Positions 18,426-62,802 of a stretch of DNA of 64,000 bases are shown piece after piece. Both the position numbers and the translations under genes were made by a program. The notes beneath the pieces are model-generated. The model did no database searches. It had not been told where the DNA came from and was given only the letters and a program-made list of their open reading frames with translations. Source of the DNA: Escherichia phage EC150; the sequence record ON210137.1; one strand, 5' to 3'. The number at the start of each line of letters is the position of its first letter. The first letter of the stretch is position 1.

Positions 18426-18540
18426 CTAATTAAGGCGCGCGGCTATATCGGTTGTTATACATATTCAAACCATAATTATTGTTTGCCTAAGTTTTTTTCA
18501 TTAGATATAATACACAATACTTATTTGAGGGTGGATGCGA

Positions 18541-41060: not shown

Positions 41061-42038
41061 TTAAAAATACTCCATATCGGTAATATCACGGAAGCATTTA
41101 TACAAGGCAGAGCGCGGCACGTCAACGATGCCAAAGTTGAAGAATTTATATGTCAGATACTTGTTGCGATAATTCTCGCGATTCTCCCAAAGCATTTTTC
41201 TCTCTGCCATAGGCATTGAACCAGCGGATACGCGGAAAGGAATCATTTCACCTTTCTCATCAACATATTTTGGATTGACAACCACAAATGATCCAAGGTA
41301 TCCTTTTGCAACTAAGCCTTCAGCCTCTTTCGAACGCTTAGTGCGACCCAACTCATCAATGAATGCTTCGTTGTTATTCTCCATCATCTCAACGAAGTCT
41401 ATGATCAGACCTTCTTCATCGGTCCACGGCTTGTCCTTCCACACATCACGTGACTTTGGCGTCGCGCGGCCATGCTTGTATTTGCCCGTCCAAGACTTGC
41501 CATACAAGCCTTCATAGCCAAGCTGGTCTGCTTCGATTTGCATCGCCGCGTACTGTTCCATATTTTCGATGTTTCGATATTCGAGAGCGCGAAGGAATGG
41601 GCGTCGACCATGGTTGAGGAGGTGCTGATTGACTTCAGCAACTCTAGCGCGATAGTTTGCATAACGCTTTTCAAAAGGCAAATCAGGGTCGCTGAAGTCA
41701 TCAAACACCCACCATGTAAAGTTAGTGATTGCATCAGTGTTCATGCATGCAGTATAGGCCTGTTGCATGACGTTCTTGTCGTTCGGATTACCGTCAATTA
41801 GCTCTCCATCAAGTCCGTGAATCAATTCACCCAAGAATAGGAACTCTTTTTTGATTTGAATATTGCGCAGCGCCATGCCGGACGTGCCCATTGGCAAGTT
41901 GTCATACGCCATCGCGCGTATGCCATCGACCTTGAAGGATAATCCGCAAGGCAGCGGCACATCTTCGCCGCGCTCGATGATTTGTTTACGCTGACAGCCT
42001 TTCATTGGTTTTAATGCTTTGATTTCTCCTGCCATCAC
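41061..42038 (-). CDS. ATP-dependent DNA ligase (putative)
   Basis: Nucleotidyltransferase motif I KVDGIR (KxDGxR) with downstream motif III-like FLGELIHGLDGELI. Confidence 0.55.
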   Translation of the reverse strand: MMAGEIKALKPMKGCQRKQIIERGEDVPLPCGLSFKVDGIRAMAYDNLPMGTSGMALRNIQIKKEFLFLGELIHGLDGELIDGNPNDKNVMQQAYTACMNTDAITNFTWWVFDDFSDPDLPFEKRYANYRARVAEVNQHLLNHGRRPFLRALEYRNIENMEQYAAMQIEADQLGYEGLYGKSWTGKYKHGRATPKSRDVWKDKPWTDEEGLIIDFVEMMENNNEAFIDELGRTKRSKEAEGLVAKGYLGSFVVVNPKYVDEKGEMIPFRVSAGSMPMAERKMLWENRENYRNKYLTYKFFNFGIVDVPRSALYKCFRDITDMEYF

Positions 42039-43200: not shown

Positions 43201-44061
43201 TTAAAACTCTTCTGCGTCGGTCGGAGTTTCATTGACAGGACCAGCGGCACCGCTTGCTTCTTCCTGCTTGCTGCGGTCAATGTTAACGTTGCCGCCAACT
43301 ACGTCGTTGTGGAATGCTTTGGCGACTTCGTACAAACCTTTGTCCTGCACCAGACCTTCCAGCTCAAACTTCAGAACTGACCATGTGTTGCCGTCTTTGG
43401 ACTGGGATGCAGTACCCATGCGAACGATGTTCATAAAGGTCGGCGGCGTTTTCAGACCCTGCGGAGTCTGAACTTTCTTCTGCTGCAGAGCGGTCATCAG
43501 CATGCGAGACGGCTTGATCATGGAAGAAGTCAGAGACAGCATTGCGCTACCAAATTCACCAGTTTCTTCGTTCAACAGAATCACAAAGTGGTTGCGTGTA
43601 TCTGCGTAGTAAGGCGATTTCTTCTCGTGCACCTTGCCGTTTTCGTCCGGCACGAATACCTTACCGTTGATCTCAACAGCGCGGCCTGCCGCGACTTCTG
43701 CATCAACGTGCTCTTTGGTGAATTCACCTTTAAAGCCTTTATCGTCGGACTCGCGACCGCCCCAAAGGATGAAGGTGCGTTTGAATGCGCAAGGGATGAT
43801 CTGCACGCCTTTCTTACCGTCATACAACTCACCAGTAACGGTGTTGTAAAGCATTCCGGCTTTTGCGCCAGGAACGTGTTTTGGATCATCTTCGTCGACC
43901 ATAGGAGACATCTTCTGCAGGACGACGATAAAAGGAATGGCATACGCATCGGCATCGGCACCTTCAAAACCAGCGCCAAAATCGGTCATGTCGACAAAAT
44001 CAGCCATAGCGGACATCTGGGTGTTTTTCACTGCAACTTCGGTAGTTTCTTTCTTAGACAT
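43201..44061 (-). CDS. putative single-stranded DNA-binding protein (acidic C-terminal tail ending in Phe)
   Basis: 286 aa; C-terminus ...ETPTDAEEF resembles acidic tails of SSB/T7 gp2.5-type proteins; replication module context. Confidence 0.35.
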   Translation of the reverse strand: MSKKETTEVAVKNTQMSAMADFVDMTDFGAGFEGADADAYAIPFIVVLQKMSPMVDEDDPKHVPGAKAGMLYNTVTGELYDGKKGVQIIPCAFKRTFILWGGRESDDKGFKGEFTKEHVDAEVAAGRAVEINGKVFVPDENGKVHEKKSPYYADTRNHFVILLNEETGEFGSAMLSLTSSMIKPSRMLMTALQQKKVQTPQGLKTPPTFMNIVRMGTASQSKDGNTWSVLKFELEGLVQDKGLYEVAKAFHNDVVGGNVNIDRSKQEEASGAAGPVNETPTDAEEF

Positions 44062-44120
44062 TTGATATTTTCCTATAGTATCAAGTTTCGTGGCAACCTG
44101 ATTTCAAGATAAAGGTTAAA

Positions 44121-44678
44121 TTACTTTTTGCTTTTAGGCAAGGTTATTTTAGCTTCTTTGTATTCAAAAACGCTAATATCTTCACTAACTGGATTGCCTG
44201 CTTCCAGCTGTTCTTTTACAAATGACTTCAGTGTAGCAGAATGAACGCCTTGTTTCAAGGTGGCTTCAACACCATCTTCACGCAGCGCGGCAACAATCTC
44301 TTGCGCCTGTTCGATTTCTTCGCGACCAAACTCAGCCGTGACGCTGGACTTGATCAGGCCGCCGTAACCGTTGTTTACAAGCCAATCGAAAACTTTTAAT
44401 TCGTTTTCTTTCTTGATTGAAGCGTTCACCTTGGACTCGACCTTGATTTTGGTCTTGTCCTCAAGCTTGATTTCGGACACGCCAAGCTCATCCATAACGC
44501 CAGGAAGCAAAACAGTTTTGATTTCACTGATACGCTGCTTTTGCATATCAGCTTCATCTTCAAGCTCTGTCAAAGCTTCTTGGCGTTCTGCCAGTTCAGA
44601 TACTAAGCGCGCAAGGCGCTCTTGAATGCTCTCAGGAGCAACCTGCGGCAAATCATCTTCCCAATTAATATTGCTCAT
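44121..44678 (-). CDS. hypothetical acidic coiled-coil protein (185 aa)
   Basis: ORF track. Confidence 0.5.
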   Translation of the reverse strand: MSNINWEDDLPQVAPESIQERLARLVSELAERQEALTELEDEADMQKQRISEIKTVLLPGVMDELGVSEIKLEDKTKIKVESKVNASIKKENELKVFDWLVNNGYGGLIKSSVTAEFGREEIEQAQEIVAALREDGVEATLKQGVHSATLKSFVKEQLEAGNPVSEDISVFEYKEAKITLPKSKK

Positions 44679-45012: not shown

Positions 45013-46536
45013 TTAATTCATCTTTTTGCCGTCGAGGATGTGATCAGCAAGCATAGATTTCATGCTCAGTGAACGCTGAATTTCTTCGTCGATGGTATCA
45101 ACGCCAATAAAATCAACATACAACACGCTTGATTTGGTGCCGATGCGGTGATTTCGGTCTTCGGATTGTTTGCGCAGCTCGTTGTCGTAGTTGCAAGAAT
45201 AATAAATTGCCAAGTCAGCGGCGGTAAGCGTGATTCCGATGCCTGCCGCTGCAGCGTGACAAACCAAGACTTGCGTTCCACCGTTCTCGACTGTGTTTTT
45301 CTGGAAGTCATCAATCAAGAACTCGCGCTGCTCTTTTGACGTCTCACCGTTATATACACCAGTGACCACGCCTTCAGACTCAAGCCAATCCTTAATCTGG
45401 TTCATCTCTTCCTTAAAGATGGCCCAAACGATGAATTTGCGCTCTGGGTCGTCTTCCAGCACCCCTTCCACATAATCCTTAAAGGCCGTGAATCGTGGGT
45501 TGTCTTCCATGTAAACCATCTCATCATACACCTTAACAAAGCCTGATGTCACCTGCTTCATCTTAGTGCGCGACGCGATCATCTCAAACTTGACGTTTTC
45601 TTCTTCGCCCTTGTATTCCATCAAATAGTTGTACTCATTCTTGAGTTCATCGTAAACATCACGTTGTTTAGGCGACAACTCGAAGTCAATAAACTTGTAC
45701 ACCTTCTCTGGAAGGTCAGGCAAGTATTCTGCTTTTGTTGCACGAAAATAGTGCGGTTCCATCAGCCGGATAAGCTTGTCAAGGTTTTTGTACATCGGTC
45801 GGCCAAACTGGTCTTTGCGCGGCACTTGCGGAATCCCATAGCCATTGCCGCCGATTTTCTTGAGGATGGCTTGCATCTCTGGGTCGTGCGCTTCAAGCAG
45901 CACTGTAAATTCAGAGTTAAAGGCACGGAATGATTTAGTGCCGAGCAATCCTGCTTCAAGGAAGTGGTATTGCATGTAAATATCCGCAGGCGAGCGCGGC
46001 AACGGCGTGCCAGAAAGGATTCGACGGGCCTTTGCCAGCCGTCCCAATTCCACAACCTTGATGGAGCGTTTGGCTGTGTTATTCTTGATGCGCGTTGATT
46101 CGTCGATGATCATCAGGCAGCGGTACTTCTTCAAGACCGACTCGATGTGTTGATAACCGACTGGTGTGTTGACAGTGTCGATGTTGAATGAGAAGATGCG
46201 CGCAGGCACTTCGCCTTCGGGGTAGTGATCAGCAAACATCTTCTCCCAAAGCGCCTTGCCCTTTTTAGTTTTCATCTTATCGTTGCCGCGCCAGTAGTGT
46301 CCAATCCACTTGATGGAAAGGTGCTCTGGTGCTTCACGACGAATCCAGTTTGAGTGGACACCGTTTGGAGCGATGACGACCATGGCATCGAACGCGCCAG
46401 CGGCGAAGTGCTTTTCAAACTCTGCCAAAGCGGTCCAAGTTTTACCAAGACCCTGTTCCATGAAATAGGCAAAGTATTTTCTGCGGCCTGCTTTATCAAG
46501 CGCCAGAAGCTGGTGGCGCATCCCTTGTGTTTTCAT
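45013..46536 (-). CDS. SNF2-family (DEAD/DEAH-like) helicase
   Basis: Walker A EQGLGKT, DExx box MIIDESTRIKN, helicase C-terminal region. Confidence 0.75.
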   Translation of the reverse strand: MKTQGMRHQLLALDKAGRRKYFAYFMEQGLGKTWTALAEFEKHFAAGAFDAMVVIAPNGVHSNWIRREAPEHLSIKWIGHYWRGNDKMKTKKGKALWEKMFADHYPEGEVPARIFSFNIDTVNTPVGYQHIESVLKKYRCLMIIDESTRIKNNTAKRSIKVVELGRLAKARRILSGTPLPRSPADIYMQYHFLEAGLLGTKSFRAFNSEFTVLLEAHDPEMQAILKKIGGNGYGIPQVPRKDQFGRPMYKNLDKLIRLMEPHYFRATKAEYLPDLPEKVYKFIDFELSPKQRDVYDELKNEYNYLMEYKGEEENVKFEMIASRTKMKQVTSGFVKVYDEMVYMEDNPRFTAFKDYVEGVLEDDPERKFIVWAIFKEEMNQIKDWLESEGVVTGVYNGETSKEQREFLIDDFQKNTVENGGTQVLVCHAAAAGIGITLTAADLAIYYSCNYDNELRKQSEDRNHRIGTKSSVLYVDFIGVDTIDEEIQRSLSMKSMLADHILDGKKMN

Positions 46537-51083: not shown

Positions 51084-51767
51084 TTATTTCCCAAATGGAA
51101 TATCAGTACCAGACATAAAGCGCCATGCGCCCGTAATTAAGATATGGCGAATGAAGTCAGCAATTACTTGCGGCTCAGTCTCCAATCCATTCATCAGTGC
51201 CTTTTTCTGGTATTCAGCAGCATACTCAGGAGTCCAGCCGCGAGTCGCGCAAACAGCATCTTCAATCTGTTTGGACATGCCAGTACCACGTAGCTTGTTA
51301 GGACTAATAGAGAATACCGTGATGCCGTATTTAGGCGTAAGCTCGTGAGCCATCTGCTTGCTAATCATAAGCGCAGCAGCCTTGGATGCATTATAACACA
51401 AGCTGGACGTCATAGGAATGTGCGCAGCGTTAGAAACGATATTGATCACAAAACCTTTGTTGTCGATAAGACTTTTCAGCGCGGCTTGAGTCGTGTTAAC
51501 GAAAGAGAATGCGTTGGTGTGCATAACGCGATTGAACTCTTCGTAGTTAACATCTTCGAACCAGTTGTTGGAGTTGACGCCAGCGCAGTTGATCAAGCCT
51601 TCTACATCATATGGGCTTAAAATTTCTTTCATCTGTTTAGCGTCGCGGACGTCATATCCGTATGCTGAATCGATGCCAAGCACGTTATGACCGTAAGCGC
51701 CAAGGGTGTCAAAAATAGATTTACCAAGACCGGAATTGGAACCTGTTACAACAATTACTTTTTTCAT
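51084..51767 (-). CDS. short-chain dehydrogenase/reductase (SDR) family oxidoreductase
   Basis: N-terminal cofactor-binding VTGSNSGLGKSI (TGxxxGxG) and catalytic YNASKAA (YxxxK). Confidence 0.8.
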   Translation of the reverse strand: MKKVIVVTGSNSGLGKSIFDTLGAYGHNVLGIDSAYGYDVRDAKQMKEILSPYDVEGLINCAGVNSNNWFEDVNYEEFNRVMHTNAFSFVNTTQAALKSLIDNKGFVINIVSNAAHIPMTSSLCYNASKAAALMISKQMAHELTPKYGITVFSISPNKLRGTGMSKQIEDAVCATRGWTPEYAAEYQKKALMNGLETEPQVIADFIRHILITGAWRFMSGTDIPFGK

Positions 51768-51790
51768 TTATTTATCCTTTTTGGACTTCG

Positions 51791-51820
51791 TTTCGATGAG
51801 ATAAATATAACTCATCGAAA
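51791..51820. other. perfect 10-bp stem-loop (TTTCGATGAG / CTCATCGAAA, 10-nt loop) between HAD-like and SDR genes
   Basis: Inverted repeat read directly; no T-tract. Confidence 0.4.
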
Positions 51821-51832
51821 CGCACAAGTAAA

Positions 51833-52705
51833 CTATTTATTGAAATTAATATTATGGGTGTTGACAAGACGTTCACACATGGCGCTGTAAACACCATCGT
51901 CGTGTATTGAGTCTTCGTGCTTCAGGCCGCTGATTGCGAAGCGTGTAAGCTTGACAATCTTAAGCTCGAACAGATGCCACATGTGGTAGTCTTCCGGCGT
52001 TTTCAACGTTACGCCATTAGGGAAAAGCACCTGCATAACCTGGCCTACCATCACAGCGTTATCGCCATAGACAGCGTTGCGCTCACGAAAGGTTGCTGCC
52101 ATTGCATCAAGAATATCGGCGGCAGTTGCCGGAGATTGTTCAACTTCCACAGCCTTAGTCTCTTCTTGCCCTGTTGCGCTTGGATCAATTGCTAATTGTT
52201 GCACCACTTCACCTGCCTTGCAAAGATTAAATGTAAAAGCGATTTTATTTTGAGCAACGGAATTATAATACAATGCTTCATCTTGCATCCGCGCGAGTAC
52301 GTCTTGTCGGTCGTCGAATACGTTGATGATTCGATAATCGCCGTGGCGCAATGCGTGCGATAGCCATGCAGATTTCATAATAGTTGATGGACGTTTGTCG
52401 CCATAGTCTCTCATCTTGATTGTAAATTCATCAAAAGGAAAAACATTGTCCAGACGTTCAAAAGTCACTTGTCTGTATTTTTCTGGCCTTGCAGTCCAAT
52501 ATTCAACCGCCTCACCGCGAAGAGATGCCGACTCTACTGCTGATGCAATGTGAGGATAGAACTGATCATAACCAATACCGCTATGATAGTCATCATAGTC
52601 TGACAACGGACCTGCCACCTTGATGCGGTCTAAGCGCCAACGGTCATCAAACAGCGTTCCGTCAAGGTCGAATACGTTTAAGATTTCGCTGTTTTTAATG
52701 CTCAT
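51833..52705 (-). CDS. HAD-superfamily phosphatase-like protein with C-terminal domain of unknown function
   Basis: HAD motif I VFDLDGTLFDD near N-terminus. Confidence 0.5.
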   Translation of the reverse strand: MSIKNSEILNVFDLDGTLFDDRWRLDRIKVAGPLSDYDDYHSGIGYDQFYPHIASAVESASLRGEAVEYWTARPEKYRQVTFERLDNVFPFDEFTIKMRDYGDKRPSTIMKSAWLSHALRHGDYRIINVFDDRQDVLARMQDEALYYNSVAQNKIAFTFNLCKAGEVVQQLAIDPSATGQEETKAVEVEQSPATAADILDAMAATFRERNAVYGDNAVMVGQVMQVLFPNGVTLKTPEDYHMWHLFELKIVKLTRFAISGLKHEDSIHDDGVYSAMCERLVNTHNINFNK

Positions 52706-53505
52706 CCTTTTGATACTCCATCTTTAGCAACTGGATTGTTGGTGATTGGCATCGCACTCCAAAACTGGATGCGCAACTCTTCTTGCTGTGACGTGGTATC
52801 CATCCAATCACGATACCAAGGGCAATGGGCTTTGCCATGACGAGGAAACGCGCATTTACCCATACCGATGCATTGCGGCTGTAATAATGGATTTGCCCAC
52901 GGGTGCACCTTGAGGACTTCCGCAACCATTGCGCGGAATACTTCTTGATACTCGCCTTGAGTGCGCGTGCACAAGCGGTTTGACGCCATCTGCTGCAGCG
53001 TGCGCAAGTTGAACTTTGCCATGATATGCGTTTGCATATTAGAAGGCAACACGGCACGTGCATCTTGAATCTCTGCGCCAGCCGCGCGAAGCTCTTGATA
53101 CAAAGCATCGATAGTCGCCATCGCATCATCCCACTTCTCTGCCAGTTCAGCGGCCTTCTCGTCATGACGAGTCCATCCCTTTGGATCATCCTCTGGGTAA
53201 GTGAATTTAGCAGGACGAATCGCATCAAATGCAGACGACTCCTGAGCGCGGCTGGTGCGTTCTTGATATGCGCCTGTGCGTGTGCGTACCATCTGATGGG
53301 TCATGTTCTTTGATACATCTGTGATATCAAAGATATAGTCCACAAAGTCAAAAGGCGACTTGATTGTATCAAGCATGTAGCGCCAATGCTCTTGCTTCTC
53401 TGATTCCGTCATCTCAGAGACAGGCTTACCAGTCATGCGCGTGTTCTTTGTTTCCAGCAAAAGGTCAAGTGCATCTTGGGTGTATCGAATTAATTCAACT
53501 TTCAT
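52702..53505 (-). CDS. flavin-dependent thymidylate synthase (ThyX)-like protein with divergent signature motif
   Basis: HQMVRTRTGAYQERTSR resembles ThyX HxxVRHRxxSxSQxSxRY block but with RTR in place of RHR; C-terminal NLRTL...TQGEYQEVFRAM also ThyX-like. Confidence 0.55.
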   Translation of the reverse strand: MKVELIRYTQDALDLLLETKNTRMTGKPVSEMTESEKQEHWRYMLDTIKSPFDFVDYIFDITDVSKNMTHQMVRTRTGAYQERTSRAQESSAFDAIRPAKFTYPEDDPKGWTRHDEKAAELAEKWDDAMATIDALYQELRAAGAEIQDARAVLPSNMQTHIMAKFNLRTLQQMASNRLCTRTQGEYQEVFRAMVAEVLKVHPWANPLLQPQCIGMGKCAFPRHGKAHCPWYRDWMDTTSQQEELRIQFWSAMPITNNPVAKDGVSKG

Positions 53506-53518
53506 TTTAATTATCCTA

Positions 53519-53965
53519 TTAACGGTAATTCACTAGTTGCTGATCACCAGAGAAGGTGCAATGATAAACGAATTGTGCGTTATAAAGCAACTGAAAACTT
53601 TTCTTTGGTTCATTATTAGAACTCATCGATGTAAAGATTTCTGCACCAGAACGGTTTTCACCAATCAGATTAATAAAGCCGCCAGTTGAACGAGGCTGGA
53701 CGAAAGTGAAACGTTGCATCCACGGAGTACGGTTGGCACCTTTCCCTGTGAATCCCTGAATCTGAATATTCAGACCTTCTTGCTCGTTCACACCGATGTA
53801 AGTGGTAATCTTCGCACCAGTCGTTGCTGCGGTCTTACCGTCCATCGCTTCGCAATCGTAAACAGCGATTGAATCGGAAGTACGGATGGCAGCTTCAGTC
53901 GCTTCCATATACATGGTGCCGAGAATAGCAGTTGCGGCAAGCGCGATTCCAGTGATTCGTTTCAT
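53519..53965 (-). CDS. exported protein with N-terminal signal peptide (148 aa)
   Basis: N-terminal MKRITGIALAATAILGTMYMEATEAA hydrophobic signal-like segment. Confidence 0.5.
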   Translation of the reverse strand: MKRITGIALAATAILGTMYMEATEAAIRTSDSIAVYDCEAMDGKTAATTGAKITTYIGVNEQEGLNIQIQGFTGKGANRTPWMQRFTFVQPRSTGGFINLIGENRSGAEIFTSMSSNNEPKKSFQLLYNAQFVYHCTFSGDQQLVNYR

Positions 53966-54030
53966 TTCCGTTTCCTCTATGAGTTCTGCTTCAATGATTA
54001 AAGTATACGCCCATTGAAGCAGAAAGCAAA

Positions 54031-55026
54031 TTATTTATTAGCAATATAAGCAAATTTTTGATAGTTATTTGCTTTGATGAGTTTTTCAACTTCAACAAGG
54101 TCATGAGCGACGTCATCAAGCAAAATGTTGCGCCAGGTAGCAAATCGACCGACACTAAACACGTTCAAATCCATGGTCAGCTGCAGGAGTAGGGCGTGTC
54201 GCAAGTCTTTCGGAATGTCGACAATCTTGCCATATTTCTGGTCGACCTTTTCAACTTCTTCAAGAGCAATGTCACTCCATGAGAGGCCAAAAGCTGTCAA
54301 CACTTCGTCGACTTCTGCGCGCAGCTTGATGTCACGGTAACGAGTGATGCCGCCAGCGGCTTCAACTGCAGCTTCACTCACGCTGACCAAAGGAATTGTT
54401 TCAATGATCAGTGTGTCGCCAGTGATTGATGCGCGGTAAGTTCTGACGGAGTAGTCAGGGAAGTAAATTGTTTGATACAAATCACACTTACGTTTAATCT
54501 TAAAGCGGTAAACGCGAATGTTTGCTTTATCAAATGAGAAATCAAGCTTTTGATCAATCCCAGCCAGCTTCATCATGACTGGCAGCGGCGACGTGTTGAT
54601 GATTGGCGTCTCGCTATAGCCGCAAAGAGTATCAACCGGAGTATTAAAGAATATGCGGTCACCCAGTTTGTCGACAAGCTGATCATAAAAGTCATCAGGC
54701 GCAATATAACGTGTTGCAGTCTTAAGCTTCATGATTGAACGGCTGCCAAACTGATTGGTGACCTTCATGGAATACATATTGGCAAGGTTGATTGGGCAAT
54801 GGTCGTGGTAGTAGTTGCCGCGAAAATACACAGCCTTGTCAACTGTCACGGCCTTGAAAGGGATTCCGGTAATACGGCTTACTTCTTCGCCGCGAAAGCG
54901 TAGAAGCGCCTTGTGCTGTTGCGCTCGTTCCCCTGCTTCGTACACAATAGAGTTCGGGAAGTGACACGCTGTGATAAGTCCTGCCAGTCCGCCGCCGATA
55001 ATCATTACAGGTTGTTTCATGTTCAT
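54031..55026 (-). CDS. FAD/NAD(P)-binding Rossmann-fold oxidoreductase-like protein
   Basis: N-terminal dinucleotide-binding motif VMIIGGGLAGLITA (GxGxxG). Confidence 0.55.
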   Translation of the reverse strand: MNMKQPVMIIGGGLAGLITACHFPNSIVYEAGERAQQHKALLRFRGEEVSRITGIPFKAVTVDKAVYFRGNYYHDHCPINLANMYSMKVTNQFGSRSIMKLKTATRYIAPDDFYDQLVDKLGDRIFFNTPVDTLCGYSETPIINTSPLPVMMKLAGIDQKLDFSFDKANIRVYRFKIKRKCDLYQTIYFPDYSVRTYRASITGDTLIIETIPLVSVSEAAVEAAGGITRYRDIKLRAEVDEVLTAFGLSWSDIALEEVEKVDQKYGKIVDIPKDLRHALLLQLTMDLNVFSVGRFATWRNILLDDVAHDLVEVEKLIKANNYQKFAYIANK

Positions 55027-55158: not shown

Positions 55159-56004
55159 TTATTCCGCTTGATCACCGTCTTCGGCATCTTCGTTGGATTC
55201 AACATCGACAAACTCGATGTGACCCATCTCTTCCAGCTTGCTCAGGTAGGAGCGAACTGAAGCGCCAAACAGTTGATCTTTAACTTTTTCGCCCAGCTCA
55301 TCGATAGACTGTGCCACGCCAACTTCGCCTTCTTTGATCGCCGCCAGAACGCGTCCACGGGTGGAATGCTCTTGCGGCTGACTCAGGCCATTGCCAGTGT
55401 AGATGAAGTGAGTAGCTTTTGCACGACGCTGACCATTGGCCTTTTTGGCAGCCTTACGTTCTGCGATGGCTTTGCGACGTTCTTCAGCTTCTTGCTTACG
55501 CTGTTCTTTCTGCTGTTCTGCAGCTTCTTTCGCCGCAATCTTAGCAGCTTCACGCTCTGCCTTGCGTTTCGCTTTGGCTTCTTCTTTGGCCTTCTCTTTT
55601 TCGGCCTTCGCTGCAGCACGGGCTTGATCACGCTCTGCTTTCTTAGCAGCAGCTTGTTCAGCTTTCAGGCGCTTGGCTTCTTCTTTAGCCTTTGCCTTTT
55701 CGATTTCTTTCGCTGCTTTAGCGGCTTCACGCTCTGCTTTCTTAGCAGCAGCCTTTTCTGCACGCTCTTTGGCCTTCTTGGCTGCTTCTTCAGCACGCTT
55801 CTGAGCCTTCTCATCAGCAGCCTGCTTGCGTTTCAGGGCAGCTTCTTCACGCTTGGCTTGTTTTTCCTGCTCACGCTTCTGGCGTTTTTCTTCGGCTTCT
55901 TTCTTTTTAGCCAGACGTTTTTCTTCAGCCACGCGACGACGTTCTGCTGCAGCTGCTTGTTTTTCTTCTTTAGATAATACTTTGATTGCTTCGGCCATGT
56001 TCAC
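55159..56004 (-). CDS. Lys/Ala/Glu-rich repeat protein (long charged helix, histone H1-like / TolA-like repeats) with C-terminal acidic domain
   Basis: About 190 aa of KAEEAAKKA-type imperfect repeats then a globular region and acidic tail EDAEDGDQAE; repetitive DNA 55400-55950. Confidence 0.55.
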   Translation of the reverse strand: MNMAEAIKVLSKEEKQAAAAERRRVAEEKRLAKKKEAEEKRQKREQEKQAKREEAALKRKQAADEKAQKRAEEAAKKAKERAEKAAAKKAEREAAKAAKEIEKAKAKEEAKRLKAEQAAAKKAERDQARAAAKAEKEKAKEEAKAKRKAEREAAKIAAKEAAEQQKEQRKQEAEERRKAIAERKAAKKANGQRRAKATHFIYTGNGLSQPQEHSTRGRVLAAIKEGEVGVAQSIDELGEKVKDQLFGASVRSYLSKLEEMGHIEFVDVESNEDAEDGDQAE

Positions 56005-56157: not shown

Positions 56158-57342
56158 TTAACGCGCTTTCAAATCACGGTACACGGTCAGATTCTTTTTA
56201 GCGCGGGTAATAGCGGTGTACATCATCTTTGCATACGGAACGCCGCGCAGGATTTCTTCCAACACGCACACATTGTCCCACTCGCTGCCTTGCGATTTGT
56301 GCACCGTTATGACATAGCCATAGTCCATGCCTCCAACGGCTCGTTGGGCCTCTTTGCGCACTTCCTGATCAGTAGAGAAGGAAAGAGGATTTATCTTCAC
56401 CTTTATATCTTTGCCATCGGTAAGCGAGCGCAAGTTGACATACATGATTTCATTAGACTCGTCTTCATCCCTTTCAAAGTCCGGCACTGGCTCATAACTA
56501 ATAACAATCCCTTGCTCGCCATTACAGAATCCTGGACCGTGTTGGTTGAATGTGCAAATAACTTTCTCTCCGATTCCTGGCATCGGCGTTATACGTCCGC
56601 TCACTTGCCGCAATAATGAATTCCATTTATCTTTGGTGCTATTATATGAGCAAATAATTTGATCATCTTCGCCCATGAATTTCTTCAACGCAGTAACGCG
56701 CGGCGATTCAGCCAACACCTTGACATCATCGTATTCACGCGGAGGAAGTCGGTTGCCCTGTCGCACGAAGAAGGAAGCGCGGATGATGTTGGACTCTTTC
56801 CCTTGCCGCATGATTTCGGTTAACAGTACGTCAACGGCATCTTCAGTAAAGTAGGCGGCGGCTTTTACCGGAGGGACTTGTCCAATGTCGCCTAATGCCA
56901 GAACAGGGATGCGGTGATCAAGAAGGCGCTCTGCGTCCCACTCGCCAACCATTGAAGCTTCATCAAGGACGACAAGATGCGGCCTTTCATCAAGCGTTGA
57001 CTTCCTTGCAAAGATTGGTTCATTGTCATCGTTAACGCCGCGCACGTTATAGATGAACTGGTGAAGGGTCTTAGCGCCACGACACCCTTTCTGCTTCAAT
57101 CGGCTGGCGGCCTTTCCGGTCGGCGCAATATAAATGGCACCGTACTCACCGACACAACGGCGCACAATCTCACGCGCAATAGAGGTTTTACCTGTTCCTG
57201 CATAGCCAGCGATGAAAAACACGCGCTTCGTTGTTTTGCCGTCCTGCAATCGCTTGTACCATGCAACGGCCTTTTCGATGGCGTCAATCTGTTGCGCGTT
57301 AAACTGAATCACTGGCTCATCATTAAATTCTGGAATGTTCAT
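56158..57342 (-). CDS. Dda/RecD/Pif1-like superfamily 1 DNA helicase
   Basis: Walker A AGYAGTGKTS, Walker B VVLDEASM, C-terminal YVITVHKSQGSEW motif. Confidence 0.75.
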   Translation of the reverse strand: MNIPEFNDEPVIQFNAQQIDAIEKAVAWYKRLQDGKTTKRVFFIAGYAGTGKTSIAREIVRRCVGEYGAIYIAPTGKAASRLKQKGCRGAKTLHQFIYNVRGVNDDNEPIFARKSTLDERPHLVVLDEASMVGEWDAERLLDHRIPVLALGDIGQVPPVKAAAYFTEDAVDVLLTEIMRQGKESNIIRASFFVRQGNRLPPREYDDVKVLAESPRVTALKKFMGEDDQIICSYNSTKDKWNSLLRQVSGRITPMPGIGEKVICTFNQHGPGFCNGEQGIVISYEPVPDFERDEDESNEIMYVNLRSLTDGKDIKVKINPLSFSTDQEVRKEAQRAVGGMDYGYVITVHKSQGSEWDNVCVLEEILRGVPYAKMMYTAITRAKKNLTVYRDLKAR

Positions 57343-57668
57343 TATAACTCCACTACGCTTTCAAGGTCCAGATATACTGGAATAAAATGGCAATCTTCTT
57401 TTCGTTCAAACATCTCACCGTCAACATGACTGAAGAAAACAGTTGTGTTTGGTATCTTCCACCCTTGCTCGCCGCGCACTAGGTATGCCATGGATTCAAC
57501 AGGGATGTAAAGCGATACCGGATTTGCGGCAAAGATGAATTTGATTCTGTCTGGTTGACCAAGGAATCGCATAATTGTAAGACTTGAATTCAGTCTTGTA
57601 TTAAGGAAGGACTCAACGATGCCGACGTGTGTTGCACGTTCGCGTTGCTTCGTATCTTTTTCGTTCAT
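57342..57668 (-). CDS. hypothetical protein (108 aa)
   Basis: ORF track; 1-nt overlap with helicase start. Confidence 0.45.
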   Translation of the reverse strand: MNEKDTKQRERATHVGIVESFLNTRLNSSLTIMRFLGQPDRIKFIFAANPVSLYIPVESMAYLVRGEQGWKIPNTTVFFSHVDGEMFERKEDCHFIPVYLDLESVVEL

Positions 57669-57771
57669 TTCAGGCGACCTTTGTTAGTGCGGAAATATTT
57701 TCTGATAGTATAATTGCAGATATAGTATAAAGCAAAGTAAATCGAAATTGTGAACTAAATGGTAAATATTG

Positions 57772-57799
57772 TTGACTTTGTATCACTCAATATTATACT
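57772..57799 (+). promoter_or_regulatory. putative sigma70 promoter TTGACT-16-TATACT
   Basis: Hexamers read directly about 30 nt upstream of the GGAAAGAAAG Shine-Dalgarno of CDS 57829. Confidence 0.5.
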
Positions 57800-57828
57800 G
57801 CAGGTATTGATCACCGAAGGAAAGAAAG

Positions 57829-58911
57829 ATGGCTAGTTTAAGAGAAGAAGCAAAAATAATCGAAGAGTTTTTGACAGAACTCCAAAGAGGCATTCCAGAA
57901 GATGAACGCGTCATGACCGTGTTTGCGCCTGAAGCAACGGTGCAGACCGACGAGCGCGGCAAAAAGATTAACAGCAGCTTCTGGCCTAAGCCTTGGAAGC
58001 TTGGCAAGCCGCTGATGCAACATCAGAACGGTTACGCCTGCATAAGTTCAATGCGTAAGTCTCCCAACCCAAAGACAGGCGAGATGCGATACTGGCGCAC
58101 GGAATCGGCTTTCGGTCATGGCATGGCGATGATGGTCGACGACATCGGTCACGGTAAAGGGTCCAAAGGCGATTTAGATTTAGAGTTCTTTTTCGAGCGT
58201 CTGAAGCCAACCGTCATTGTTGAGACTTCACCGAACAACCACCAGCTGTGGTATTTCTTTAAAGACCCGATTGACCATCTTATCCAGTTCAAAGCATTCC
58301 TTGGGTCTTTCGTAAACATGGTACTCAAGAAGGGCGGCGACAACACGATTAAAGACGTGACGCGCGTGGGCCGTGTTCCTGGTTGCATCAACAACAAGCG
58401 TGTGACTCACGACGGCCCTTACAAATATGTCGATGAGAACGGCGACCCGTTCCGCTGCCGACTTGTCCATGCAGACTATTCTTTGCGATACACAATCGAA
58501 GAGATTTGCCAAGCCTTCGGTTTCCACGTCGTTATGCCGCAAAAGCGTGAAATTCAAATTGACGTTGACGAATACAAATATGATGCTGTTTGGTATAAAA
58601 TAGCCCAGCAAATCCTTTCGCGCAATAAGATGGGTGAAGGGTCCGATGGCGATGTTGTTGAAAACATGTCAGGTAAATGCCGCATCATCTGCCCTTGGGG
58701 TGAAGAGCACACCAACGGCGACCCATATGGCGCTTACTTTCGCGGCCCAATCCCTGGCGCTGAACATGAATTCGTTTTCGGTTGCGCTCACGACTGTCAC
58801 CGGAAAGGTGAAGGTAAGAAAGGCTGGACAGCTTTTGTTGAAGCAGTAGTCATGCCTTATATTGAGAATCAACTTGATATGATAAATCGTCGCGCAGGTG
58901 GCATAAAATAG
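57829..58911 (+). CDS. archaeo-eukaryotic primase (AEP)-type primase-polymerase with C-terminal Cys/His zinc-binding region (putative)
   Basis: AEP-like motifs: DxD-type MAMMVDDIGHG, His motif NNHQLWYFF, RVGRVPGCINNK; C-terminal CPWGEEH...CAHDCH. Confidence 0.5.
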   Translation: MASLREEAKIIEEFLTELQRGIPEDERVMTVFAPEATVQTDERGKKINSSFWPKPWKLGKPLMQHQNGYACISSMRKSPNPKTGEMRYWRTESAFGHGMAMMVDDIGHGKGSKGDLDLEFFFERLKPTVIVETSPNNHQLWYFFKDPIDHLIQFKAFLGSFVNMVLKKGGDNTIKDVTRVGRVPGCINNKRVTHDGPYKYVDENGDPFRCRLVHADYSLRYTIEEICQAFGFHVVMPQKREIQIDVDEYKYDAVWYKIAQQILSRNKMGEGSDGDVVENMSGKCRIICPWGEEHTNGDPYGAYFRGPIPGAEHEFVFGCAHDCHRKGEGKKGWTAFVEAVVMPYIENQLDMINRRAGGIK

Positions 58912-58912
58912 T

Positions 58913-58940
58913 TTGCTTTTATTTTTCTAGCAACTATAAT
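58913..58940 (+). promoter_or_regulatory. putative sigma70 promoter TTGCTT-16-TATAAT
   Basis: Hexamers read directly; followed by AGAGGTGA Shine-Dalgarno and ATG 58970. Confidence 0.5.
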
Positions 58941-58969
58941 CATTTTATGAACTGAAGCAGAGGTGATTT

Positions 58970-59116
58970 ATGAAAAGCGAAGAATTGAATATCGAGCTTG
59001 AAGGTCTGTTAAAGTCGTTAGAACCTAAGCCCGTAGAGCTTCCCACCCTTGAAGGTGTCATGGCTCACCACCAATCGGCTGCGGCCAAACACTACTATGA
59101 ATTTATTAAGGAATAA
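58970..59116 (+). CDS. hypothetical small protein (48 aa)
   Basis: Below track size cutoff; strong Shine-Dalgarno and promoter upstream; stop abuts next gene. Confidence 0.35.
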   Translation: MKSEELNIELEGLLKSLEPKPVELPTLEGVMAHHQSAAAKHYYEFIKE

Positions 59117-59118
59117 AA

Positions 59119-59409
59119 ATGAACGAACCAAAAATGATGACTGTTGAAGAAGCGCAAAAGCTTCGTGTTGAAAACGAGCTTAAGCTTGTCAACCAGATTC
59201 TTCCCTTGTTTGCAGGCTACGCAGTTGAGGAAGTTGTTGGTGCAATCCTTAACGTATCCACGCACGTAGCGATGAATCTTCAGGCCGAGCGATTCAACAC
59301 GCTGCTGACTATTAAAAATCTTACGGTCAGTGCAACGTTCACCGTTGAGCCAGTCAATTTTGACGAAGCTTCAGCCGCGATTCAACAGCAAAGAGATCAA
59401 GAGGTGTAG
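59119..59409 (+). CDS. hypothetical protein (96 aa)
   Basis: ORF track. Confidence 0.5.
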   Translation: MNEPKMMTVEEAQKLRVENELKLVNQILPLFAGYAVEEVVGAILNVSTHVAMNLQAERFNTLLTIKNLTVSATFTVEPVNFDEASAAIQQQRDQEV

Positions 59410-59410
59410 C

Positions 59411-59674
59411 ATGGGCGCTTTCCGTAACGAGTTCATCTGGAACGTTACTAGCAATCTCTCGACTTGTCCTAACTGTGCGAGCGATGTGATCAAGGTGCGG
59501 CAGCATCGCAACGCAGAGGAAGGTGCCTGGGAGGACGGCGACCTTGTAGAGTGCCAGTGCTGCTCTCACGAAGGCGTGGTGGAGCTTTACGCAGGAGAAG
59601 GTTGTCCACCAGCAGAACGTTCAGCACGCGTTGAATGGGATGCGACAGACTCCATCGGTGATCCTCAACAGTAA
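59411..59674 (+). CDS. small zinc-ribbon protein (CPNC ... CQCC)
   Basis: AGAGGTG Shine-Dalgarno before ATG 59411; two Cys pairs. Confidence 0.45.
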   Translation: MGAFRNEFIWNVTSNLSTCPNCASDVIKVRQHRNAEEGAWEDGDLVECQCCSHEGVVELYAGEGCPPAERSARVEWDATDSIGDPQQ

Positions 59675-59793
59675 ATTTAGGTATAGATACATATGAAAGC
59701 CGTAAAGAAATACACATTAATCATTTCCCTTGTTATCATCCTGGGGCTATTATATGTATTGGATATGGCATATTATTTGGCAGGGGTGAGTAA

Positions 59794-60084
59794 GTGAATA
59801 TTGTAATTCTTTATGGTGAGAATATCAGCGATGACGACATCGAAGTTGCCGTTGATGTTTACGGTATCGATGAGGTGAAACGTGTTGAAGAAATTAATGG
59901 CGCAAATCTTAACGAGATTGTCAAAGAAGCTGGTTGCCCTTCGGAAGAGATTCTGGTGGTTACTAACGATGACCTGTCTTCTATGGATTGTTTGCGTCGC
60001 ATCTTCACCGATTGCCAATACCTTCATGCTGTTCAGTCAGTAAACAAATTGAGAAAGGCATACGCTGACCAATTTCCTTGCTGA
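59794..60084 (+). CDS. hypothetical acidic protein (96 aa)
   Basis: ORF track; GTG start with AGGGGTGAG Shine-Dalgarno. Confidence 0.4.
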   Translation: MNIVILYGENISDDDIEVAVDVYGIDEVKRVEEINGANLNEIVKEAGCPSEEILVVTNDDLSSMDCLRRIFTDCQYLHAVQSVNKLRKAYADQFPC

Positions 60085-60134
60085 TAGTTCACCAGTTATA
60101 TTGCTTTAAACTGAGTTTTACTATATTAATATAC

Positions 60135-60160
60135 AACGCCAGATTTCTGGCGTTTATTTA
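60135..60160 (+). terminator. rho-independent terminator (ACGCCAG-ATTTC-TGGCGT then TTATTTA)
   Basis: Hairpin plus T-rich tract about 50 nt after stop of CDS 59794..60084. Confidence 0.6.
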
Positions 60161-60220
60161 CCGCACCCTGAAAGGATATATCCATGCAACAATATAACAA
60201 AGCCGTATCAGGAGGATTAA

Positions 60221-61891
60221 ATGTCAATTGAACATGACAATCTTCCAGAGGATACAGGTGATGAATTTGGTGCAATCTTTGACGAAATTCAAGATGCTGG
60301 TGTTTCAGAAGAAATGCAAGCGGCAGAGCAGCAAGGCACCAGAGCTAAAATCAGCCTCCAGCACAAGGCTGTTGAGAAAGATGCAGAGCGCATGGAATGC
60401 TACGGTGAAGAAGACTTGGTTGAAAGGGCACGTTTGCTCGCCTCACTTCAGGTAATCAAGTTCCCTCACTACAAACCGACGAAAGATGATTTTGTTCTTC
60501 AGGCGGACCGGACGAGTGACATGAACCGTTATGCGGTTTTCGACGCGTTGTTTGATAAGGGAAGTGGCGTTGTTCCATTCCCTCACAAAGATACTTTTCG
60601 TGGGCGCTTAGTCGACCATCGCGGCGAAACATTCACCGACCGGACGTTGGAAGTCACAGAGATAGTTGCCGCTGTCGACGCAGCAGGGCTGTCCAACCCA
60701 AACTCACGTCAGGTCGCTCAATCCTATAAGGAATGGGCCATGCGTTATCAGCGCGACGACCTGATGGACTTCTTCTACAAGAAGCTGCCTGAATGGGACG
60801 GTACTGCGCGCATTGAGAAATACCTTATCGAGCTATTCCGACCGTTCGATACAGAGTTAAACCGACAAATCGGTGTGTATTTTTGGCTATCGCTCTATAA
60901 CCGCCTGACCAACCCTGGCTGTCAAGCGCCAATCTCCATCGCGCTCATCGGCGGCCAGAACGCAGGGAAAAGTTATTTTAGCAAGCTGCTTTGCGAAGCT
61001 ATTATGAACGACCGCCACGCAACACCGATTCCGTTGAACTTGGCCGCGCAGAACTTCAACCCGTTCTTGCGAGCTATTACGGGTCGCTCAATTATCGCGA
61101 ACGTTGGCGAGATGACAGGCTTTAAAAAAGCTGACATCGAAAACATGAAAGCATTCCTGACTAAGACGGAAGATGACCTGGACTTCAAATTTGAAGACAC
61201 GCAGGTTAAACCACGCCAGTGGATTGCTATCATGGACGGCAACGAATACGCAGGTATGCAGCGTGACGACACGGGCAACCGTCGTGTGTACCCTATATTT
61301 GTTGGCCAACTCGCTGACAAGGACGGGCAACCGAACTGGTCCAAAGACTTCCAAGCTGACCTTTCCACTTTGAAAGAAGACGTTTGGCAGCTGATGGCTG
61401 AGTGCGCCGCATGGATGGAGAAGCACGGCGAAGCAGGTTACAATGCCTTTGTTGGTGAAACATCTCGCATGCTTACTGAGTTCAGCAAGAACGAAATGGA
61501 ACGTGCTCGCGGCGTTATCCGTGATGAGATGGTCGACAACGACCTTGTTGAAGTAGTCATTACCGCGCCTTATGACCGACATCACAGCGGACGCTGGCAC
61601 ATCACCAGTGGTGCAATTGCTATGGGATTCAGAGCTAAGTGCGGCAAGTCGCCTTTCTCACGTACCCTTGCGCCGCACATGTCGAAGCTTGGATTTGAGC
61701 CTGCGACCTATCGCAACCAGCGTGGTTACTTTACGCCGCTGATTAAGAATGAAGCAGGGGAATACATTTCTGACTTGATGACTATCTTAGCGTATCTTAT
61801 CCGCGACGAGTCTGACCCTGAAGATATTGAATTCTTGAAGAAGGTTATTGAGCGCAAACGTTCTTTAGGAAGAGATAAGGATGAATTCTGA
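60221..61891 (+). CDS. VirE-family / primase-associated P-loop NTPase (putative replicative helicase)
   Basis: Walker A IGGQNAGKSYFSKLL; Walker B-like WIAIMDGNEY; AGGAGG Shine-Dalgarno; adjacent to AEP primase. Confidence 0.55.
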   Translation: MSIEHDNLPEDTGDEFGAIFDEIQDAGVSEEMQAAEQQGTRAKISLQHKAVEKDAERMECYGEEDLVERARLLASLQVIKFPHYKPTKDDFVLQADRTSDMNRYAVFDALFDKGSGVVPFPHKDTFRGRLVDHRGETFTDRTLEVTEIVAAVDAAGLSNPNSRQVAQSYKEWAMRYQRDDLMDFFYKKLPEWDGTARIEKYLIELFRPFDTELNRQIGVYFWLSLYNRLTNPGCQAPISIALIGGQNAGKSYFSKLLCEAIMNDRHATPIPLNLAAQNFNPFLRAITGRSIIANVGEMTGFKKADIENMKAFLTKTEDDLDFKFEDTQVKPRQWIAIMDGNEYAGMQRDDTGNRRVYPIFVGQLADKDGQPNWSKDFQADLSTLKEDVWQLMAECAAWMEKHGEAGYNAFVGETSRMLTEFSKNEMERARGVIRDEMVDNDLVEVVITAPYDRHHSGRWHITSGAIAMGFRAKCGKSPFSRTLAPHMSKLGFEPATYRNQRGYFTPLIKNEAGEYISDLMTILAYLIRDESDPEDIEFLKKVIERKRSLGRDKDEF

Positions 61892-62538
61892 TGAATAAAG
61901 CAATCAACATCGCTAAATTCTTTCAACATCTCGGTGAACTGAACAAAGAGAGTGACGTTCACGGAGAAGAAATGAACCGGATGATTTCAACCGTGTTGCG
62001 TGGTTTTGGCTACGATAAGGACTCCATCACCTGCAAGCGCACGAAGCTTGTCGATGAGACATACCTTTACTACGTTGAATTGCGCGTAGGGAAAGATTTG
62101 ATGATCATCGACCCTAAATTGGAAGGGGCGCACTGTTTTGGCGCTCACCCTCGTGCAAGTGAATTCAAGGGGCGCGGTCGCAACCGACTCCAGAAGCTTG
62201 ATGATGCAGGCGACCTGAACATCTCGATGTTCCTCAAAGAGTTCCTTGCTTTGCCGAAGGTTGCATCTTCAACAGGTCGTGATGACCTGTGCAAGATTGG
62301 ATTCAGAACTAAAGATTTGCGCAATGCGCTACGCAAGAAGGGATTTGTGCCTTCTTATGATAACGTCGCCGCGCTGATGGCTTCCATGGAGGAAGCTGAA
62401 GCAATGGACAAGGTGCGCGGCTATTTCCTGAATACAGGCTACACAATGTATGAGTGGCACACCAAAGGATTGACGGTCGCCGACTTCATCTATTCATTAG
62501 AGCAGAAGTATGTACGCAATATGCAGGCCACAGGATAA
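61891..62538 (+). CDS. hypothetical protein (215 aa)
   Basis: ORF track; ATGA overlap with upstream gene. Confidence 0.5.
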   Translation: MNKAINIAKFFQHLGELNKESDVHGEEMNRMISTVLRGFGYDKDSITCKRTKLVDETYLYYVELRVGKDLMIIDPKLEGAHCFGAHPRASEFKGRGRNRLQKLDDAGDLNISMFLKEFLALPKVASSTGRDDLCKIGFRTKDLRNALRKKGFVPSYDNVAALMASMEEAEAMDKVRGYFLNTGYTMYEWHTKGLTVADFIYSLEQKYVRNMQATG

Positions 62539-62577
62539 TTATCATCAAAATATTTGCTTTTCTGACGAGGTGATATT

Positions 62578-62802
62578 ATGATTAATTTAGACAGGATTGA
62601 GTTAGCACTTAGTACCTTAATCAAATATTACCAGTTTGCTTTTAAGGCCAGTTTGTTCGGCTTGTTCAATCCTCATCAAGCAGCAAAGGCGCGAAGCAAT
62701 GCCAACCGCCTGCGTTGTACTGGTATAGTCATCCACGACCGGATATTGACAGAGGGTAGATTCAGCCATGAATACACAAGGGAGAATAACAAATCAGCGT
62801 AG
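62578..62802 (+). CDS. hypothetical protein (74 aa)
   Basis: ORF track; GAGGTGA Shine-Dalgarno. Confidence 0.4.
   Translation: MINLDRIELALSTLIKYYQFAFKASLFGLFNPHQAAKARSNANRLRCTGIVIHDRILTEGRFSHEYTRENNKSA

Follow-up and report, generated by a model that had tools for sequence, protein, structure and literature searches.

A RepB'-like primase and a VapE-type helicase as a probable split primase-helicase module of a Wifcevirus coliphage

Introduction

The 64,000-nucleotide stretch of DNA from Escherichia phage EC150 analysed here (record ON210137.1, hereafter the window) raises the question of whether two genes of its plus strand, at 57829-58911 (360 amino acids, aa) and 60221-61891 (556 aa), encode the primosome of a phage whose polymerase genes lie on the opposite strand. 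An initial annotation, made from the sequence by a model, had read the first gene as an archaeo-eukaryotic primase (AEP)-type primase-polymerase, the second as a VirE-like NTPase, and the two together as the probable primosome. Both open reading frames (ORFs) were found at these positions, each with an ATG start and a strong ribosome-binding site (GAAGGAAAG for the primase gene, AGGAGG for the helicase gene), and the strength of their Pfam and PHROG matches puts it beyond doubt that neither is a chance ORF. Bases 57000-62600 showed 92-98% nucleotide identity to 28 Escherichia/Shigella phage records, the closest being phage Mansfield (98.2%), and by sequence the source of the window is a Wifcevirus coliphage.

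Our reading, to which we assign a probability of roughly 0.8, is that the two genes together form the primosome of a Wifcevirus phage, a primase-helicase module in split form. This reading of the gene pair appears correct but is already known from the GenBank, RefSeq and PHROGs annotation and from a paper on the Pbunavirus orthologues (PMC12390725). The part worth following up consists of two candidate origin/terminal-repeat modules located elsewhere in the window.

Results

The 360-aa protein is a RepB'-like primase by profile and fold

The 360-aa protein matched the RepB_primase profile PF16793 with an E-value of 4.1e-36 (125 bits, gathering cutoff 24.3) along profile positions 4-181 of 186, and phrog_4861 with an E-value of 2.8e-198. 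Among 5.8 billion proteins searched, 180 relatives were found, nearly all of them encoded on myovirus contigs of ~60-75 kb that correspond to Pbunavirus, Kylevirus, and phages of Serratia, Erwinia, Xanthomonas, Burkholderia and Luteibacter. An AlphaFold2 (AF2) model built on the family alignment (predicted local distance difference test, pLDDT, 87.6) showed the AEP catalytic fold, with S-2L PrimPol as the closest AEP structure. Its layout comprises an N-terminal helix, the AEP domain (aa ~25-237), a linker helix, a Zn-binding module (aa ~267-330) and a C-terminal helix. Because the direct sequence match to the RepB' structures was only marginal (E 0.16-0.32), membership in the RepB'-like AEPs is based on the match to the Pfam profile together with the fold. 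Both place the protein inside the AEP superfamily, where the initial annotation had put it, and according to them it is a RepB'-like AEP primase.

Motif conservation was evaluated on an alignment of 31 sequences, 51-81% identical to the window protein, in which D104, D105, S134, N137, Q139, G169, G170, D171, D176 and R179 were invariant, as were R182, P184, N188, N189 and K190, which correspond to the R-x-PG-x-N-x-K motif already recognised in the initial annotation. The acidic motif described there as DxD is also real, but in the form of the adjacent pair D104-D105 ("VDDIG"), whereas the sole literal DxD of the protein, D115-L-D117, is not conserved. The D104-D105 pair aligned with the RepB' segment bearing D77-D78, which together with D134 have catalytic roles in that enzyme (PMC8567376); for the counterpart of D134, the third Asp in motif III, there are two invariant candidates, D171 and D176. 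The proposed His motif did not survive the alignment: position 138 is His in 9 sequences, Tyr in 15 and Phe in 7, and the invariant residue is its neighbour Q139. The canonical motif II His of AEPs (sxH) is therefore absent as a conserved residue, and a Gln stands at motif II. This His-to-Gln replacement is documented in RepB'-like and PolpTN2-like AEPs (PMC5862659) and, since it is a substitution specific to these families, the missing His does not exclude AEP membership.

The C-terminal Cys/His cluster, noticed from the beginning, was confirmed by the same alignment, with C288, H294, C319 and H321 invariant and position 324 occupied by Cys in 24 sequences and by His in 7; two further Cys of the window protein, C284 and C323, lack such conservation in the family. 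In the AF2 model the last ~100 residues, following the AEP core, form a helix, a small beta module and a further helix. At a mean identity of 75%, versus 61% for the AEP core, the Zn module is the best-conserved segment of the protein. No PriCT/helix-bundle or other Pfam family was found for it in a scan of 14 members (E<=10), and a PDB sequence profile search with the module returned only noise (antibodies, tailspikes). Its assignment as a zf-CHC2/Prim_Zn_Ribbon (DnaG-type) or a UL52-type finger was dropped, as neither Pfam nor PDB searches gave a match. A Zn accessory domain attached to an AEP core has precedents in the superfamily, where PrimPol and UL52 carry Zn fingers. In RepB', a helix-bundle domain is required for dinucleotide formation, a role that corresponds to the Zn-binding domain of primases of the DnaG type (PMC8567376). 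In the window primase, the RepB'-like AEP core is joined to an accessory Zn module and not to a helix bundle.

The 556-aa protein belongs to the VapE/VirE-family superfamily 3 helicases

The product of the second gene matched the VapE-like profile PF05272 over aa 189-407 (E 1.6e-28, 100.1 bits, cutoff 25) and phrog_4630 with an E-value of 4.2e-255. Its 228 relatives came from the same kinds of contigs as those of the primase, and PF05272 was precomputed for all of the 120 homologues listed. The VirE-like context was thus correctly perceived, although the protein is described more exactly as a superfamily 3 (SF3) helicase, probably of the self-loading initiator type. The Walker motifs were also found, in the form of the P-loop GGQNAGKS, with G244, Q246, G249 and K250 invariant in an alignment of 30 sequences, and of E297 as the Walker-B equivalent; N341 (motif C) and R354-R355 (arginine finger) are likewise invariant. 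Sequence comparison with proteins of known structure detected Rep1 of the Staphylococcus aureus pathogenicity island SaPI1 (PDB 7PDS, E 4e-11), with alignment of Walker A (GGQNAGKS in the phage, GGQGVGKS in Rep1), the glutamate of Walker B, the Asn of motif C and the arginine finger GNRR. The next structural relatives were the NrS-1 helicase, SaPI5 PriRep5, poxvirus D5, C962R of African swine fever virus (ASFV), papillomavirus E1 and Rep40 of adeno-associated virus.

The AF2 model (pLDDT 84.3) presented the SF3 ATPase fold, preceded by a disordered N-terminus and an N-terminal domain (~61-188). The ATPase core (~189-383) is followed by a long linker helix (384-427) and a C-terminal helix/beta-hairpin domain (~431-556). 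The latter is the most variable part of the protein, with a mean identity of 22% versus 58% for the ATPase core. Judged from profiles, the Rep1 match and the model, the 556-aa protein is a VapE/VirE-family SF3 AAA+ helicase that resembles the self-loading initiators Rep1 and PriRep5. These two SF3 helicases are hexamers and use the C-terminal domain to recognise and melt their own iteron origins (PMC9371898).

Both genes carry the label "DNA primase" in RefSeq (gp071 and gp076 of phage WFH) and in PHROGs, and the curated BASEL record agrees. For the SF3 helicase (phrog_4630), this name is also used in most GenBank records; the BcepF1 record calls it "archaeo-eukaryotic primase superfamily helicase", and that of Serratia phage MTx "primase superfamily helicase". 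The label "DNA primase" was probably inherited from primase-helicase fusion proteins. The second gene is thus widely mislabelled, VapE-type SF3 helicase being its proper name.

Primase and helicase are inherited together and fused in nature

By tblastn, 355 phage records encode a full-length primase and 351 a full-length helicase, and the taxon profile is the same for both. The gene pair is syntenic and co-diverging in Wifcevirus, Kylevirus, Pbunavirus, and in phages of Serratia, Xanthomonas and Burkholderia, and the distance between both genes is 135-360 bp in Xanthomonas phage FoX6 and Pbunavirus. In addition, a profile search of 1.84 billion representatives revealed close homologues of the primase within proteins of 850-1045 aa. 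One of them, the metagenomic protein P0241 (946 aa), is a natural fusion of RepB_primase and VapE: its residues 22-368 are 46% identical to the entire window primase, Zn cluster included, and residues 416-834 are 37% identical to aa 26-439 of the helicase (E 5e-79). In other relatives the same primase domain is fused to ATPases of the DUF5906, DUF927, AAA_25 or DUF3987 families. Such shuffling of primase and ATPase domains fits the pattern reported for the primases of mobile genetic elements (PMC5862659), and in S-2L PrimPol an AEP is likewise fused to a VirE helicase (PMC8065100).

It is because of this co-inheritance, the natural fusion and the domain shuffling that we regard primase and helicase as a functional pair, and the same evidence supports the primosome reading put forward in the initial annotation. 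On this reading, two-metal nucleotidyl transfer would depend on D104, D105 and one more Asp, either D171 or D176, and the Zn module, located at the place of the RepB' helix bundle, would most likely grip the template and the initiating nucleotide. The helicase would be organised in tiers like Rep1 (N-terminal, ATPase and C-terminal DNA-binding) and would most likely form a hexameric ring, opening the phage DNA and unwinding the fork. Primers made on the exposed single strands would then be extended by the DnaE/DnaQ-type polymerase of the phage and sealed by its ligase.

The replication block of the opposite strand

The DnaE/DnaQ polymerase and the SNF2 and Dda-like helicases attributed to the other strand were located there by family matches (Table 1), together with an ATP-dependent ligase and MazG-like, PNK-like, ThyX-like and FabG-like proteins. 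Among the ORFs of the replication block, unassigned ones included, none was recognised as a sliding clamp, a clamp loader or a single-stranded-DNA-binding protein (SSB). Hence, the suggestion of a largely autonomous replisome holds only in part. In Wifcevirus and PB1-like phages, an AEP primase and an SF3 helicase accompany a DnaE/DnaQ replicase of bacterial type, a mosaic already present in databases and in the 2025 paper on Pbunavirus. The presence of the DnaE/DnaQ replicase makes a primase-only role of the 360-aa protein more likely than that of a primase-polymerase.

Two origin-like modules, one of them at the terminal-repeat boundary

No origin, single-strand initiation (ssi) hairpins or iterons were found near the two genes (57300-62700, including the divergent region 57669-57828 and the gap that follows either gene), where only short two-copy repeats at chance level were present. 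An origin was searched for elsewhere because a Rep1-type helicase implies an iteron origin. GC skew was not used as an indicator, as the cumulative skew merely tracks the direction of transcription. In an unbiased scan, the two most AT-rich 80-bp segments of the 64 kb coincided with the two top-ranked k-mer clusters. These segments are the cores of two paralogous modules of ~330 bp in opposite orientation, A and B, present in 28/28 Wifcevirus records. The core of module B reaches 91% AT, the maximum of the window, and that of module A 87.5%. The 9-mer ATCCGTATC occurs 9 times in the window versus 0.42 expected, with 7 of these copies clustered in 18167-18422 in both orientations.

Module B occupies the gap that separates the head-protease gene from the head-morphogenesis genes, and the syntenic gap of three phages of other genera showed a like design, each with its own repeat sequence. 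In Pantoea phage Kyle, repeats of GGAATAACC/AATAACC surround its most AT-rich segment; the repeats of Pseudomonas phage LBL3 are of the CCAAATTACC type, and those of Salmonella phage PCSE1 comprise ATATCGGC and GCCGTTATAT, the latter three times in tandem. Another AT-rich site of Kyle, at 2403-2482, was rejected as an iteron module, as it corresponds to a TTTTCGAAAA-palindrome promoter/operator-like region. Common across genera are GCCGCG boxes, analysed at five sites: 18134-18443 and 2224-2512 of the window, and loci L003 (17584-17998), L005 (11640-11973) and L007 (1283-1378). Seen from the AT core, every GCCGCG box on the left is in the plus strand and every one on the right in the minus strand (14/14). 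Their enrichment over the genome average is 3-5-fold, and TGCCGC boxes are shared as well. Those of LBL3 form a perfect 13-bp inverted repeat, CTACTGCCGCGAG ... CTCGCGGCAGTAG.

Phage WFH has an exact direct terminal repeat of 3701 bp whose first base corresponds to window position ~2406, a point in module A's AT core, and whose last base corresponds to 6075. In Kyle, too, the terminal repeat starts in an AT core, that of a complete module whose iterons are of the Kyle type (L004, 29440-29760). Judged from the start of these repeats, module A marks the physical left genome end in two genera, Wifcevirus and Kylevirus. Such a position fits either a role in packaging or end formation, or initiation at an origin that duplicates the repeat.

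From sequence and analogy, modules A and B may tentatively be regarded as replication origins, although we hold this to be rather less probable than not. A more elaborate model is doubtful: a bidirectional origin in which iterons would be read by the C-terminal domain of the helicase and GCCGCG boxes by the primase, with initiation coupled to end formation. With lower confidence than for the primosome itself, the fast-evolving C-terminal domain could recognise the genus-specific 9-10-bp iterons of modules A and B, after which the helicase would melt the >87%-AT core and load itself, and the slow-evolving Zn module of the primase could use the GCCGCG boxes as start signals on opposite strands. 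Such divided recognition is suggested because the conservation of the respective domains fits this division of labour. An analogy is provided by RSF1010, whose oriV is opened by RepC/RepA before RepB' primes at the inverted ssiA/ssiB sites (PMC8567376). If the model were true, initiation at module A would also duplicate the terminal repeat and hence define the left genome end. The candidate modules offer a testable handle on replication start and terminal-repeat formation in the therapeutically used Pbunavirus and in the reportedly very fast-replicating Wifcevirus.

Several points weigh against the origin assignment. The helicase gene has no adjoining iterons or hairpins, unlike in SaPIs, where the origin adjoins rep; modules A and B are 40-55 kb away from the two genes, one of them exactly at the terminal-repeat boundary; and both are upstream of plus-strand genes, with sigma-70 promoters predicted within the module of LBL3 in its own record. 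The orientation rule of the GCCGCG boxes was recognised post hoc. Moreover, the syntenic head-gene gap of Xylella phage MATE2 showed no clear iteron/AT-rich module, so that positional conservation extends to four genera and not to a fifth; by its taxonomic annotation MATE2 belongs to Carpasinavirus, and Xanthomonas phage Carpasina of that genus has a homologue of the primase.

Because of this distance, of the terminal-repeat boundary and of the position upstream of genes, modules A and B could serve packaging, end formation or transcription instead. That they are not origins but terminase/end-formation sites (A) and/or sites for a transcription regulator of the phage ahead of late and early genes, with no tie to the gene pair, is a serious possibility, if short of an even chance. 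It would account for the start of the WFH and Kyle terminal repeats within equivalent cores and for the location of the modules ahead of plus-strand genes, with promoters predicted inside the LBL3 module; pac sites, such as that of SPP1, typically also have repeats around the position of the cut. It accounts less well for module B, which has the same design yet is internal, 16 kb from the end, and for the inverted iterons around the most AT-rich DNA of the genome, a classic design for origins of SF3-type or iteron-type initiators. In addition, the C-terminal domain of the helicase is the only clearly fast-evolving DNA-binding candidate examined in the replication module. In T7, origin/promoter elements at the ends take part in concatemer processing, so origin and end roles need not exclude each other.

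Other repeats were observed within and around the terminal-repeat region. A 15-nt tandem array, AATCATTACGCTTCG x4.2, occupies 5946-6008, just before the right boundary at 6075 deduced from the WFH comparison, and GAAATTTGCAGTACACT recurs just past it, at 6097 and 6194. At least six copies of AATTTGCACTAT[A/G], probably an early promoter or operator motif, are found inside the repeat region (2741-2767, 3240, 3421, 3493, 3537, 3624). In Kyle, clusters of TAGTGCAA/TAGTGCGAA are present at 800-1477.

Alternative roles of the gene pair

Enzymatic activities, hexamer formation, physical interaction of primase and helicase, and the choice between ribo- and deoxyribonucleotides are inferred, and the functions of the phage proteins are assigned by homology throughout, which counts against the primosome reading. 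So does the presence in the replication block of two further helicase-like proteins, Dda-like and SNF2-like, either of which is a possible fork helicase. In view of the latter, the VapE-like protein might act only as an origin-opening initiator or a primase-loading platform, with the fork unwound by the Dda-like superfamily 1B (SF1B) helicase, the SNF2-like translocase or host DnaB. The Rep proteins of SaPIs are chiefly initiators, and the work on Pbunavirus phage Banzai names the orthologue as candidate initiation protein and leaves open the interplay of the three helicases (PMC12390725). We consider this restricted role unlikely, though the best placed of the alternatives to a primosome that both primes and unwinds.

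A second alternative concerns the primase, which could be a primase-polymerase for repair, translesion synthesis, restart or terminal-repeat synthesis, with host DnaG priming the lagging strand. Among structures, S-2L PrimPol is nearest to it and is a true DNA polymerase; RepB' synthesises its DNA primers at just two sites, for a replication by leading strands only (PMC8567376); and the failure to find clamp and SSB genes makes some dependence on the host likely. However, the phage has a dedicated DnaE/DnaQ replicase, and the primase gene, itself universally conserved, shows linkage to the helicase gene in about 350 genomes. The best-conserved segment of the protein is its Zn module, an accessory domain of the kind that acts in primer initiation and length control (PMC8567376). 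Moreover, hosts ranging from Pseudomonas to E. coli argue against dependence on a specific DnaG-DnaB contact of the host. Taken together, this alternative appears quite improbable. Finally, it is highly improbable that the pair is a recently acquired, dispensable replication cassette of plasmid or satellite type: RepB_primase and VapE domains are typical of plasmids, phage-inducible chromosomal islands and integrative elements, but both are core genes here, syntenic and co-diverging across phage genera (64% and 44% identity to Pbunavirus), and no composition anomaly was seen at 57-62 kb.

Gene neighbourhood and other features of the window

The features located in the window are collected in Table 1. 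The candidate promoter of the primase gene lies in a 160-bp AT-rich divergent intergenic region (57669-57828), 30 nt upstream of the start, and promoter and terminator scans near the gene pair were at chance level. The terminator-like hairpin splits the primase unit from the helicase unit. Among the small ORFs between both genes, RefSeq places gp074 of WFH on the minus strand at 59490-59717, whereas the BASEL record annotates 59411-59674 on the plus strand; RefSeq has probably chosen the wrong one. The 215-aa ORF that follows the helicase gene, and is probably translationally coupled to it, was found only in Wifcevirus and Kyle-like phages, with 27-30% identity and always directly 3' of the helicase, and this restriction rules it out as a conserved core subunit of the primosome.

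Table 1. Position of the features described in the text, in window coordinates.
Feature	Position	Strand	Evidence or remarks
Origin-like module A	2170-2540	.	paralogue of B, inverted; AT core 2389-2468
Origin-like module B, candidate cis target	18120-18450	.	9-mers ATCCGTATC, tandem and inverted, flanking AT core 18236-18315
ATP-dependent ligase	41061-42038	opposite to the pair	
SNF2-type ATPase	45013-46536	-	
DnaE-like polymerase, 967 aa	46936-49839	-	
DnaQ-like proofreading exonuclease, 180 aa	49839-50381	-	
Dda-like SF1B helicase	56158-57342	-	divergent from primase
Sigma-70-like promoter, TTGACT-16-TATACT	57772-57799	+	10/12 consensus matches; not above regional chance count
Primase coding sequence, 360 aa	57829-58911	+	Pfam/PHROG profiles, alignment, AF2 model
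AEP (RepB'-like) catalytic domain	57901-58539	+	invariant residues of family alignment
Cys/His Zn-binding accessory module	58627-58818	+	C288-x5-H294-x24-C319-x-H321-x2-[C/H]324
Four small lineage-specific ORFs between primase and helicase	58970-60084	+	
Small ORF, 48 aa	58970-59116	+	
Small ORF, 96 aa	59119-59409	+	
Small ORF, 87 aa	59411-59674	+	CxxC...CxxC zinc ribbon; phrog_4446 (3e-10)
Small ORF, 96 aa	59794-60084	+	
Intrinsic-terminator-like hairpin, CGCCAG-ATTT-CTGGCG then TTTATTT	60137-60159	+	terminator in WFH record
VapE/VirE-family SF3 helicase coding sequence, 556 aa	60221-61891	+	Pfam/PHROG profiles, SaPI1 Rep1 match, AF2 model
Walker A/P-loop GGQNAGKS	60947-60973	+	helicase aa 243-251
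215-aa ORF	61891-62538	+	start overlapping helicase stop (ATGA); without family match

Several minus-strand genes of the replication block were also recorded. A nucleotide-metabolism cluster at 51084-55026, with a possible role in DNA or nucleotide modification, encodes the FabG-like reductase, the PNK-like and ThyX-like proteins and a 331-aa protein (phrog_4828) with an N-terminal GGGLAG dinucleotide-binding motif and no Pfam match, the counterpart of which is called "oxidoreductase" in the Kyle record. Between this cluster and the Dda-like helicase gene, 55159-56004 encodes a Lys/Ala/Glu-rich protein of 281 aa (phrog_4765, unknown function) with internal 99-nt repeats, predicted to form a long charged helix that leads into a small C-terminal domain. 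Finally, two proteins encoded at 43201-44678, between the ligase/MazG genes and the SNF2 gene, matched Pam3_Gp34 (4e-86) and DUF7307/Pam3 gp33-like (3e-37).

Comparison with known systems

The closest counterpart of the pair is that of the Pbunavirus (PB1-like) phage Banzai, whose gp075 primase and gp077 helicase belong to the same families and have the same order and strand (PMC12390725), with identities of 64% and 44%, respectively, to the window proteins. Pbunavirus also shares with the window phage the DnaE/DnaQ, ligase, Dda-like and SNF2-like companions. The two systems differ in that the Pbunavirus genes are ~360 bp apart, whereas those of the window are separated by 1.3 kb with four small ORFs and a terminator, and in that Wifcevirus has a 3.7-kb terminal repeat, whereas Banzai is reported to be headful-packaged and circularly permuted (PMC12390725). 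In the same 2025 work, gp077 is read as a SaPI-type self-loading helicase and candidate initiator, and origins are deduced from GC skew only, not from iterons.

RepB' of the IncQ plasmid RSF1010 (PDB 3H20/3H25), with only marginal pairwise similarity to the phage primase (E 0.16), carries a helix-bundle (PriCT-1) accessory domain where the phage protein has the Cys/His Zn module. Its partners are a superfamily 4-type helicase, RepA, and a separate initiator, RepC, and it primes with deoxyribonucleotides at ssiA/ssiB only. In the cyanophage S-2L PrimPol (PDB 6ZP9), AEP, PriCT-2-like and VirE-family helicase domains form a single chain, whereas the window pair is split. The accessory domain of S-2L PrimPol is a helix bundle instead of a Zn module, and the enzyme is the sole DNA polymerase of its phage, in contrast to the phage of the window, with its DnaE/DnaQ replicase. 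On the helicase side, SaPI1 Rep1 is 19% identical to the phage protein, which is longer by ~190 N-terminal residues. The origins of SaPIs (Rep1, SaPI5 PriRep5) consist of iterons flanking an AT-rich region and adjoin rep, whereas the iteron modules of the window are 40-55 kb off. The primase-helicases poxvirus D5, ASFV C962R and that of phage NrS-1 complete the set of closest known systems.

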